From assembly GCA_041916775.1 (NCBI GenBank), contig JAYRYZ010000001.1, positions 295,825-359,824 of the forward strand: a DNA stretch of 64,000 nt, in the 5' to 3' direction. The notes under the pieces were generated by a model. The model did no database searches. It was not told the DNA's origin and saw only the letters and a program-made list of their open reading frames with translations. The DNA is from Rhodocyclaceae bacterium (GTDB taxonomy: Bacteria > Pseudomonadota > Gammaproteobacteria > Burkholderiales > Rhodocyclaceae). Shown here piece after piece: positions 44,467-47,252 of the stretch (within the stretch, counting starts at the first letter, position 1; each line of letters starts with the position of its first letter). The translations under genes were made by a program, and so were the position numbers.

Positions 44467-45506
<1,040 letters not shown>

Positions 45507-47252
45507 CTACTCGTCGCCGCGCGGCTGCATGGGACGCACGCTCAGCCGGATCACCTTCTCGCTGCCGTCGTCCTGCGTCACGCGCAGCAGGTCCGAGACC
45601 ATCGCCTCACGCTCCTTCGAGGCCTTGAAGAGCAGCGCCGATGCGACCGGTACGAGGTTCTCGGGCAGGATGCGCGACAACTCCAGGCTGGCCGAACCCT
45701 CTCTGGCCCGGAAGTAGGGCTGCACTCGGCCGAAGAGGTGGATCGCCTCGTGCCGGTCATTGACCAGGATCGCAGGCGGCACGTACTTCTCGAGCAGGAC
45801 GTTCATGGCCTCGTCGGTGGCGACACCATCCTCCTGCAGCCTGTGGCGTTCGCTGGCGCGCCGCAGTGGCGCGCGCTCCGTCATGTATGGACCGCGGGCA
45901 CCCGGCACGCCCAGCCCCAGGTTGACGCTGGTGGCCGCTTCCGTTCTGCGGAAGAGCTTGTGCTTGCCATGGATGGTGGCGAAGCCGCTGCTCTGGCCCG
46001 AAAGCGATTCGCTCGAACCGAGCAGCATGTAGCCCTGTTGTTCGATTGCGTACTGCAGCCGGTCCAGCGCGCGCTTCTGCGCATCGGGGGTGAAGTAGAT
46101 CAGCGTGTTGCGGCAGCTGACCAGGCTCATCCGGGTAAACGGCGGATCGCTCAGCAGGTTGTGGCGTGCGAACACGATGCACTGGCGAAGCTCCTGCTTC
46201 ACCACATACTGGTTGCCGTTGCGGGTGAAGAAGCGTTCCAGACGCTCGGGCGTGAGCTCTGCCGCAGCCGACTCGGGGTAGCGTCCGGCCGCGGCGAACT
46301 CGACGTTGTGCTGGTTCACGTCGGTTGCGAAGACCTTCAGGCTCGGCCAGCGCCGCAGCCGCTCGAAGGCCTCGAAGAAGGTGATCGCGATCGAGTAGGC
46401 CTCCTCACCCGTGGAGCATCCCGCCACCCAGACCCTGAGTGCTCCGCCGGCGACGGCCTGGCCGACCAGTTCGTCGACGACTCTGCGCGCGAGCGTGTCG
46501 AACACCTCCGGGTCACGGAAGAAGCTCGTCACCGGGATCAGCAGCTCGCGGCGCAGCACTGCGACCTCGTTCACATCCTGCTCGAGCAGCCCGAGGTACT
46601 CGGCGAAGCTGCGCATGTGCCGAACCTGCATGCGCCGCTCGATACGGCGGTTGAGCGTCGCGGATTTGTAGTCGTTGAAGTCGATGCCGCTGATCTGCAG
46701 CAGCAACTGGATGATGCCCTGGCGCGCCTCGTCCTCGGTGAGCGGTGTGTTGGCGCTGCCCTCCCGCTGTGGCAGCTCATCCTCCGGCGGCAGGTTGCCG
46801 ATATGCGACTGGATGCGTGCGGCCAGCTTGTCGGCGCCGAGCACGGCATCCACCAGTCCGGTCGCGATCACGCTGCCGGGCATGCCGTCGAACTTGGCTT
46901 CGCGCGGTTCCTGCGCGAGCAGGAAGCCTCCGGCAGCGTTGAGTGCAGTCGCGCCGCGCGTGCCATCGGAGCCGGTTCCCGACAGGATGACGCCGATGCT
47001 GCGGCTGCCGAAGTCGTCGGCCAGGGCGCCGAAGAAGATGTCGATCGGCAGGGTCAGAAGGTGGGGATGTTTGGGTGTCAGACGGAAGCGTCCGTCCTGG
47101 ATACGCATGATCGTGCCCGGTGGGATCAGGAAGATCTGGTTGGCACCGATGGGCAGGTCGTCTTCCACCATGCGCACTTTCATGCGGGTGTAGCGCGCCA
47201 ACAGATCGGTCATCATGCTCTTGTGGTCGGGCGACAGATGCTGGATGACCAC
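45507..47252 (-). CDS. CheB methylesterase catalytic domain - CheR methyltransferase fusion (as annotatable ORF from GTG 47252; N-terminal beta-strand lies upstream of an in-frame TAG)
   Basis: CheB catalytic motifs (VVIQHLSPD..., GSDGT) then CheR N and SAM-methyltransferase domain (VWVAGCSTGEEAYSIA); in-frame TAG at 47295-47297 separates it from the 47298-47417 fragment encoding ...FVVAIGASAGGLEAL. Confidence 0.75.
   Translation of the reverse strand: MVIQHLSPDHKSMMTDLLARYTRMKVRMVEDDLPIGANQIFLIPPGTIMRIQDGRFRLTPKHPHLLTLPIDIFFGALADDFGSRSIGVILSGTGSDGTRGATALNAAGGFLLAQEPREAKFDGMPGSVIATGLVDAVLGADKLAARIQSHIGNLPPEDELPQREGSANTPLTEDEARQGIIQLLLQISGIDFNDYKSATLNRRIERRMQVRHMRSFAEYLGLLEQDVNEVAVLRRELLIPVTSFFRDPEVFDTLARRVVDELVGQAVAGGALRVWVAGCSTGEEAYSIAITFFEAFERLRRWPSLKVFATDVNQHNVEFAAAGRYPESAAAELTPERLERFFTRNGNQYVVKQELRQCIVFARHNLLSDPPFTRMSLVSCRNTLIYFTPDAQKRALDRLQYAIEQQGYMLLGSSESLSGQSSGFATIHGKHKLFRRTEAATSVNLGLGVPGARGPYMTERAPLRRASERHRLQEDGVATDEAMNVLLEKYVPPAILVNDRHEAIHLFGRVQPYFRAREGSASLELSRILPENLVPVASALLFKASKEREAMVSDLLRVTQDDGSEKVIRLSVRPMQPRGDE

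Follow-up and report, generated by a model that had tools for sequence, protein, structure and literature searches.

Introduction

How does a gene that is continuous in its relatives come to be cut by a stop codon with two start codons directly behind it, and is such an arrangement a product of decay or a functional split? This question is raised by a gene for a CheB-CheR-PAS signaling protein on contig JAYRYZ010000001.1 of a Rhodocyclaceae bacterium (GenBank assembly GCA_041916775.1). It lies in a stretch of 64,000 nucleotides (nt; contig positions 295,825 to 359,824), which we refer to as the window and to which all plain coordinates in the following apply. An initial annotation, made from the letters of this stretch, had pointed to the junction TAG-ATG-ATG within the gene and offered two explanations, decay of the sensor or deliberate gene fission with translational coupling. 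Based on a comparison of closely related strains, more distant homologs and a structural model, we conclude, with a probability of roughly 85%, that the amber codon at this junction is a recent nonsense mutation in an already broken gene and thus part of a stepwise pseudogenization. This is a kind of event that is already known, namely ordinary early gene decay, and the strain series that documents it is tidy but unsurprising.

A reading frame interrupted by two amber codons

Read on the minus strand, window 45540..45481 is CGT CCC ATG CAG CCG CGC GGC GAC GAG TAG ATG ATG CTG CTC GCC TTC GAA CCG TAC. The upstream open reading frame (ORF; 45507..47252, stop-to-stop up to 47294) has the C-terminal end RPMQPRGDE*, and the downstream ORF (44463..45506, 347 amino acids, aa) opens with MMLLAFEPYNLPL in the same frame; the junction was thus described correctly, and it is in frame. 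A further amber codon is found near the start of the gene, in the context GASAGGLEAL*RFF (VVAIGASAGGLEAL*RFFNHCPP). Reading through both stops yields a single CheB-CheR-PAS-coil-PAS-PAS frame of 984 codons. Since its homologs are continuous, one conventional polypeptide has indeed been divided into three pieces by two amber codons. The elements of the gene are:

44463..47417, minus strand: the whole disrupted gene, from the ATG at 47417 to the TGA at 44463; 984 codons if read through
47295..47297, minus strand: TAG41, the first amber codon in the frame, in place of GAG (Glu)
45507..45509, minus strand: TAG637, the second amber codon in the frame, numbered on the read-through gene
45501..45506, minus strand: ATG ATG, in frame and directly 3' of TAG637
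45483..45851, minus strand: PAS-like domain A, placed by the strands of a structural model; severed by TAG637

Recent origin of the second stop codon

The origin of the two stops can be followed in close relatives of the window strain. Contig L001 (Logan, SRR9673766) aligns without gaps to 7,032 nt of the window (50039..43008), at 99.70% identity and with 21 mismatches. One of these mismatches is at 45509, where the window has T and L001 has C, resulting in TAG in the former and CAG (Gln) in the latter. We compiled the relevant codons for the window and the close contigs, with L085 (88.7% nucleotide identity) and L002 (85.3%) as intact outgroups:

Codon 41: TAG in the window, L001, L082, L083 and L086, i.e. 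in every member of the clade of at least 99.5% identity that covers the codon; GAG in both outgroups
Codon 447: TAG in L082, L083 and L084 only; CAG elsewhere
Codon 637: TAG in the window and L086 only; CAG in L001, L082, L083, L084, L085 and L002

Each stop of the window thus differs by a single substitution from the sense codon of close orthologs, GAG in the case of codon 41 and CAG in that of codon 637. L086 (Logan, run SRR26835462), which carries the same TAG637, does not differ from the window in any of the 3,090 nt compared (100% identity). L082, L083 and L084 (runs SRR28981362, SRR28981363 and SRR28981365) form a sister lineage with a stop of its own, Q447* (TAG447 at about 2875-2877 of L082), and with CAG at codon 637, and in L001 the remaining 929 codons are still open after TAG41. 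JGI metagenome contigs, scanned for exact matches to the sequence at either TAG site, yielded none.

These distributions show the origin and polarity of the three amber codons. In the ancestor of the clade, GAG41 changed to TAG as the founder lesion, which ends translation after 40 residues and parts the Ser of the CheB domain from the catalytic His and Asp. What remained of the frame would then have drifted, and second hits followed, Q637* in the window lineage by a single C-to-T transition (CAG to TAG) and Q447* in the sister lineage, with a third lineage keeping its 929 codons open. The ATG ATG behind TAG637 is an ordinary internal Met-Met of the ancestral protein and not an evolved start; intact closest relatives have the Met-Met codons, which therefore predate TAG637. 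The intact gene encodes a signaling protein of about 980 aa with the domain order CheB-CheR-PAS-coil-PAS-PAS; it is under strong purifying selection in relatives and normally co-transcribed with a gene for a PAS-GGDEF-EAL protein. We infer that the fragments now encoded either lack a function or are produced at levels too low to be of use. The early end of translation may, in addition, reduce the expression of the coupled GGDEF-EAL gene downstream. Of the two explanations offered in the initial annotation, decay is the one that agrees with CAG in a 99.7%-identical strain, the clade-wide E41* and the independent Q447*, whereas deliberate fission with coupling finds no counterpart in any homolog split at codon 637.

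In these respects the locus resembles bacterial pseudogenes that arose by point nonsense mutations: its stops lie at codons kept as sense in relatives, a founder lesion is shared, the second hits differ and the orthologs are constrained. It differs from them in being very young, with just 15 further substitutions in the clade. For annotation, this means that the three ORFs in 47417..44463 are to be treated as one pseudogene and not as three genes. The strain is probably devoid of the CheB-CheR-PAS input to the neighboring cyclic di-GMP (c-di-GMP) enzyme.

Within the gene, derived alleles at codons 646, 882, 908 and 982 are distributed in incompatible patterns, the window sharing Y646 and H882 with L082, and E908 and A982 with L001. 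Such sharing implies either recombination between strains or chimeric metagenome contigs as the probable source.

Continuity of the gene in homologs

A search of 5.8 billion proteins identified at least 120 relatives of about 860-1030 aa, which cover 85-100% of the read-through translation and are all continuous; the identity to many members of the CheB/CheR fusion family is 58-90%. Likewise, 79 distinct genome loci, obtained in a scan of genome contigs from species other than the window's own, align in a single tblastn segment across both TAG positions and have a stop at neither. The closest named genome is that of Pseudothauera lacus (79% aa identity), followed by an Azoarcus metagenome-assembled genome (73%), which points to a betaproteobacterium of the Thauera/Azoarcus group as the probable source of the window. 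Intact orthologs are found at about 85-89% nucleotide identity, for instance P0124 with 980 aa and P0002 with 981 aa. In these proteins and loci, the reading frame runs from CheR to the coil without interruption.

The two interrupted codons differ in their conservation. Of the 79 loci covering codon 41, 77 have Glu there. Codon 637, by comparison, is variable (R in 49 loci, K in 9, T in 8, Q in 4, besides other residues) and stands ahead of a conserved strand, xLLxFE. This strand, the last one of PAS-like domain A, begins at codon 639, and L is found at the preceding codon, 638, in 52 of 81 loci. Met-Met at 638-639 is internal to the protein and confined to the closest relatives, which read GDEQMMLL (P0001, P0002 and P0124) or GDEHMMLL (P0003); P0004 has GDEQLLLL.

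The domain order and the PAS-GGDEF-EAL gene downstream are shared with CheB/CheR fusion proteins containing PAS domains, labeled ‘two-component system CheB/CheR fusion protein’ in the style of JGI and KEGG, from which the present copy differs in its twice interrupted reading frame. In a literature search we found no study that, judged by title and abstract, was evidently about the CheB-CheR-PAS fusion family or a light- or B12-regulated c-di-GMP module.

Domain organization and effects of the stop codons

Domains were assigned with Pfam on the read-through translation, supplemented by a model for the regions of domain A and the coil, and are given in the codon numbering of the 984-codon gene:

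Codons 28-202: CheB_methylest (PF01339), E = 4.9e-52; interrupted by TAG41
Codons 235-281: CheR_N (PF03705), E = 1.3e-15
Codons 296-486: CheR (PF01739), E = 1.4e-52
Codons ~523-645: PAS-like domain A, from an AlphaFold2 model
Codons ~660-752: NEEL coiled coil, a helix at residues 605-697 in the model of P0001
Codons 745-850: PAS_10 (PF13596), E = 1.8e-22
Codons 862-965: PAS_4 (PF08448), E = 3.1e-10

All features of the CheB-CheR-PAS fusion family, that is CheB, CheR_N with CheR, and the NEEL coil with PAS_10 and PAS_4, are thus present in the read-through translation. The single continuous polypeptide of about 980 aa is not, owing to the TAGs at codons 41 and 637, which make this copy a disrupted representative of the family.

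The first stop affects the CheB domain. In an alignment to solved CheB structures (6ymz, 3sft, 1chd and 1a2o), GASAGG of the read-through protein corresponds to GASTGG, and IQHL to QHM. These aligned motifs carry the catalytic Ser and His of CheB, respectively. TAG41 lies between the Ser motif (codon 33) and the His motif (codon 59), and the locus can therefore yield no intact CheB triad unless the stop is read through.

For the second stop, we used an AlphaFold2 model of the near-identical P0001, built with 59 homologs (mean predicted local distance difference test, pLDDT, 79.9); window codons correspond to P0001 residues plus 55. In this model, domain A has strands at residues 494-497, 502-507, 556-559, 565-574 and 584-590, with a pLDDT of about 80-86. 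Codon 637 (Q582 of P0001) is located in the hairpin loop ahead of the last strand, LLAFEPY, at a local pLDDT of about 86. According to the model, then, TAG637 is not at a domain boundary but severs a predicted folded PAS-like domain before its final β-strand. The initial annotation had placed the stop at the junction of CheR and the coiled coil; it does interrupt the frame between these two, but it is not at their boundary, as CheR ends at about codon 486 and codon 637 falls within the PAS-like domain.

Sequence methods find no PAS domain in this region: no Pfam family is assigned between CheR and the coil, and a profile-profile comparison of the region with the two later PAS domains gave no significant similarity. 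For this reason, the assignment of domain A as PAS-like builds on the topology of the AlphaFold2 model and on a Foldseek match. The top Foldseek matches are CheR structures. A 484-column match was obtained to the structure of PpsR (4hh2), a regulator with three PAS domains; this is consistent with three PAS-like domains here.

The coil contains five tandem heptads (window ~45162-45440, minus strand; codons 660-752), TSNEELQ, ATNEELM, ASNEELQ, SSNEELQ and SVNEELN, in which N, E, E and L are invariant across 60 homologs. They presumably resemble the consensus of chemoreceptor methylation sites (A/S-x-x-E-E-x-x-A-S/T), and this analogy suggests that the protein's own coil could be a substrate of its CheR and CheB domains.

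Selection on the gene

Between the window and the intact outgroups, the ratio of non-synonymous to synonymous substitution rates (dN/dS) is 0.07-0.09, a value that shows a functional gene under constraint in the relatives with an intact copy. Apart from codon 41, 15 codons vary within the clade, with 8 synonymous, 5 missense and 2 nonsense differences. The resulting dN/dS of about 0.3, a rough value of our own calculation from site counts, is above the long-term value and suggests a relaxed constraint within the clade, as far as these few substitutions indicate. The neighboring MerR gene shows three differences within the clade, all of them synonymous.

Some observations weigh against stepwise decay or soften it. 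At 7:8, non-synonymous and synonymous changes within the clade do not stand in a significantly higher ratio than over the long term (Fisher p = 0.14), and this value is below the naive neutral expectation (binomial p = 0.016), so that the loss of constraint may be incomplete. A CheR-PAS product may be made from an internal GTG, given the 929 open codons in L001. Furthermore, L086, which reproduces TAG637, may derive from reads of the same isolate as the window.

Why both stops are amber

The initial annotation had considered two ambers in a TGA-dominated genome unlikely to be a matter of chance. This argument does not hold. When all single-base changes that create a stop in the repaired gene are enumerated, TAG accounts for 70-74% of them under several weightings of transitions and of GC-to-AT changes. 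It arises in one step mainly from GAG, with 63 codons in the gene, and from CAG, with 36, and both observed mutations are of these types. The natural stops in the window are about 23 TGA, 4 TAG and 2 TAA by a crude gene call, which used a GC1>GC2 filter, misses some genes, and replaced a GC3-only call that mixed sense and antisense frames. Natural stop usage is, however, uninformative about the mutational spectrum, and the appeal to chance therefore fails. In GC-rich genomes, an excess of amber among in-frame stops should accordingly not be taken as recoding, because GAG and CAG make TAG the default nonsense outcome.

Alternative explanations

The most obvious competitor of stepwise pseudogenization is an evolved fission into a CheB-CheR subunit and a coil-PAS-PAS subunit, the second of which would be produced by termination-reinitiation at TAG-ATG. 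The stop and the ATG are directly adjacent and in frame, overlapping stops and starts are used for coupling elsewhere in the operon (two ATGA junctions), and other lineages, e.g. L089, carry lesions in the same PAS-like region with intact flanking ORFs. We nevertheless consider fission highly improbable. A strain with 99.7% identity has CAG, which leaves no time for selection to shape a split; none of the 79 loci and none of the at least 120 listed proteins is split at codon 637; and the other broken copies break elsewhere (at 313, 447, ~547, ~587, ~603-608 and 628), by stops, 1-nt indels and runs of N. Moreover, the Met-Met codons are older than the stop, the cut costs the domain its last β-strand, and the upstream half already ended at codon 41. 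The junction also compares poorly with genuine ATGA-type coupled gene pairs. It shares with them the adjacency of stop and ATG, and the same operon holds two of them, whose starts carry GGAG 6-7 nt upstream (CACCGGAGTACCGA-ATG at 47417 and CGCGGAGCGCTGCA-ATG at 44466) and are conserved in L002 and L085. TAG-ATG has neither property: the 25 nt before the ATG at 45506, CATGCAGCCGCGCGGCGACGAGTAG, contain no GGAG, GAGG or AGGA. Low-level reinitiation at the adjacent ATG is physically possible. Inactivation might instead have been adaptive, with loss or truncation of the protein favored by selection and the repeated ambers selected. Three nonsense mutations in one gene, in a clade differing by only 0.3-0.5%, would fit such a scenario, as would 2 nonsense changes among 15 post-founder substitutions, where about 0.5 are expected (estimated from the count of stop-creating changes), and the state of the coupled GGDEF-EAL gene, which in the window lineage has a codon deletion by GGDEF, two missense changes and no synonymous one. 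However, with a nonsense probability of about 4-5% per substitution, at least 2 of 15 are expected with a probability of about 0.12-0.17 (hand calculation), which is not significant; after E41*, there is no obvious extra benefit from further truncation, and the numbers are very small. We therefore regard adaptive inactivation as unlikely.

Two further alternatives would leave the protein whole. If TAG were decoded, be it by an amber suppressor tRNA, as pyrrolysine or through programmed read-through, the full-length protein would still be made, and it is true that both in-frame stops are the same codon and that the frame is open across them. We give this next to no credence: TAG637 is strain-specific (window and L086) and TAG41 confined to the clade of at least 99.5% identity, where relatives have Gln and a nearly invariant Glu, respectively; three further long ORFs of coding character in the window close with TAG as well; the sole tRNA in the 64 kb is Leu-CAA, with no tRNA-CUA or pyl genes within the window, and besides tRNA the RNase P RNA is the only Rfam family at gathering score there; and the excess of TAG is accounted for by codon usage. 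It is extremely improbable, too, that the true base at 45509 is C and the stop a sequencing or assembly error. Although the window differs from the nearest strain by a single base here, the independently assembled L086 has the same TAG, substitution errors are rare in consensus assemblies, and the window lineage has other private substitutions nearby.

Broken copies in other lineages

Homologs natively split at the same point, with conserved start codons, which the initial annotation had named as counter-evidence, were sought with the 347-aa piece as query, and none was split at codon 637. The search returned many proteins of about 360 aa, mostly fragments on contigs of 1-5 kb, of which six on long contigs were inspected. 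We rejected these matches as native splits, as they trace back to fragments at contig ends, shifted frames, a stretch of N or, in one case, an independent TGA, always away from codon 637:

L089 (4995-4997; also L090 and L091): TGG to TGA at the equivalent of codon 628; the same 359-aa downstream protein on 9 contigs from several samples
L092: stop at 313 and a 1-nt insertion near 605
L093: run of N near 603
L094: frameshift near 547
L088: frameshift near 587
L087: frameshifts near 206-234 and 591-628

None of the six has a conserved start, and their breaks are heterogeneous or reflect assembly defects. In L089-L091, all three of which were inspected, the neighboring ORFs are intact. The CheB-CheR-PAS family is thus repeatedly found broken, and part of this may be assembly error. 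As the match list of the 347-aa query is biased to short proteins, with full-length relatives not among the matches listed, a clustering of break points in it is not interpretable. One could still imagine that the loop of domain A (codons ~545-640) is a repeatedly tolerated break point at which both halves work as two proteins, the downstream half being made by termination-reinitiation at TAG-ATG, and that the window strain and the L089 population represent early, independent steps of fission; we find this very unlikely.

Separately, the frame of L022 is interrupted by a stop at position ~2773, which corresponds to codon 193.

Neighboring genes and other observations

The disrupted gene is flanked by two genes, with both of which it overlaps:

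47414..48397, minus strand: MerR and B12-binding regulator gene, upstream; ATGA overlap between its stop codon and the start codon of the disrupted gene
41818..44466, minus strand: PAS-GGDEF-EAL gene, downstream; ATGA overlap between the stop codon of the disrupted gene and its own start codon, which GGAG precedes by 7 nt

In most of the 79 loci, the CheB-CheR-PAS gene has a PAS-GGDEF-EAL gene as its immediate downstream neighbor. A gene for a MerR/B12-binding (CarH-like) regulator adjoins the CheB-CheR-PAS gene in about 15 of the 79 (within L003-L081). This gene order hints at a possible light- or B12-regulated c-di-GMP module.

Compared with L082, the GGDEF-EAL gene of the window has three missense differences and one codon deletion, and no synonymous difference. 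Polarized on the outgroups, V320I, D712N and the deletion, (CTG)3 to (CTG)2 directly after GGDEF, belong to the window lineage. When both genes are pooled, non-synonymous changes are in excess over the long-term ratio (p = 0.016; small numbers). This would fit a decay of the whole two-gene module, in which the partner GGDEF-EAL gene may be decaying too. The deletion, at window 42883-42912 (minus strand), turns GGDEFVLLLEG into GGDEFVLLEG.

Farther upstream, at window ~48535-48544, about 1.4 kb are missing relative to the intact outgroup L085. This loss takes the N-terminal helix-turn-helix part of a LysR-type regulator and a whole gene for an NmrA-like NAD-binding protein. What is left of the regulator is a 110-aa remnant of its substrate domain (ORF 48449-48781, plus strand), which is likewise found in L001, L082 and L086.

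Elsewhere in the window, two same-frame coding ORFs at 51110..54133 were suspected to be another split gene; this was rejected, as they were read by eye as putative SecD and SecF, which are normal separate genes. Two ordinary housekeeping RNAs are also encoded in the window, a class A RNase P RNA (2025-2410, plus strand; 312 bits) and the tRNA-Leu (CAA) (56719-56803, plus strand).

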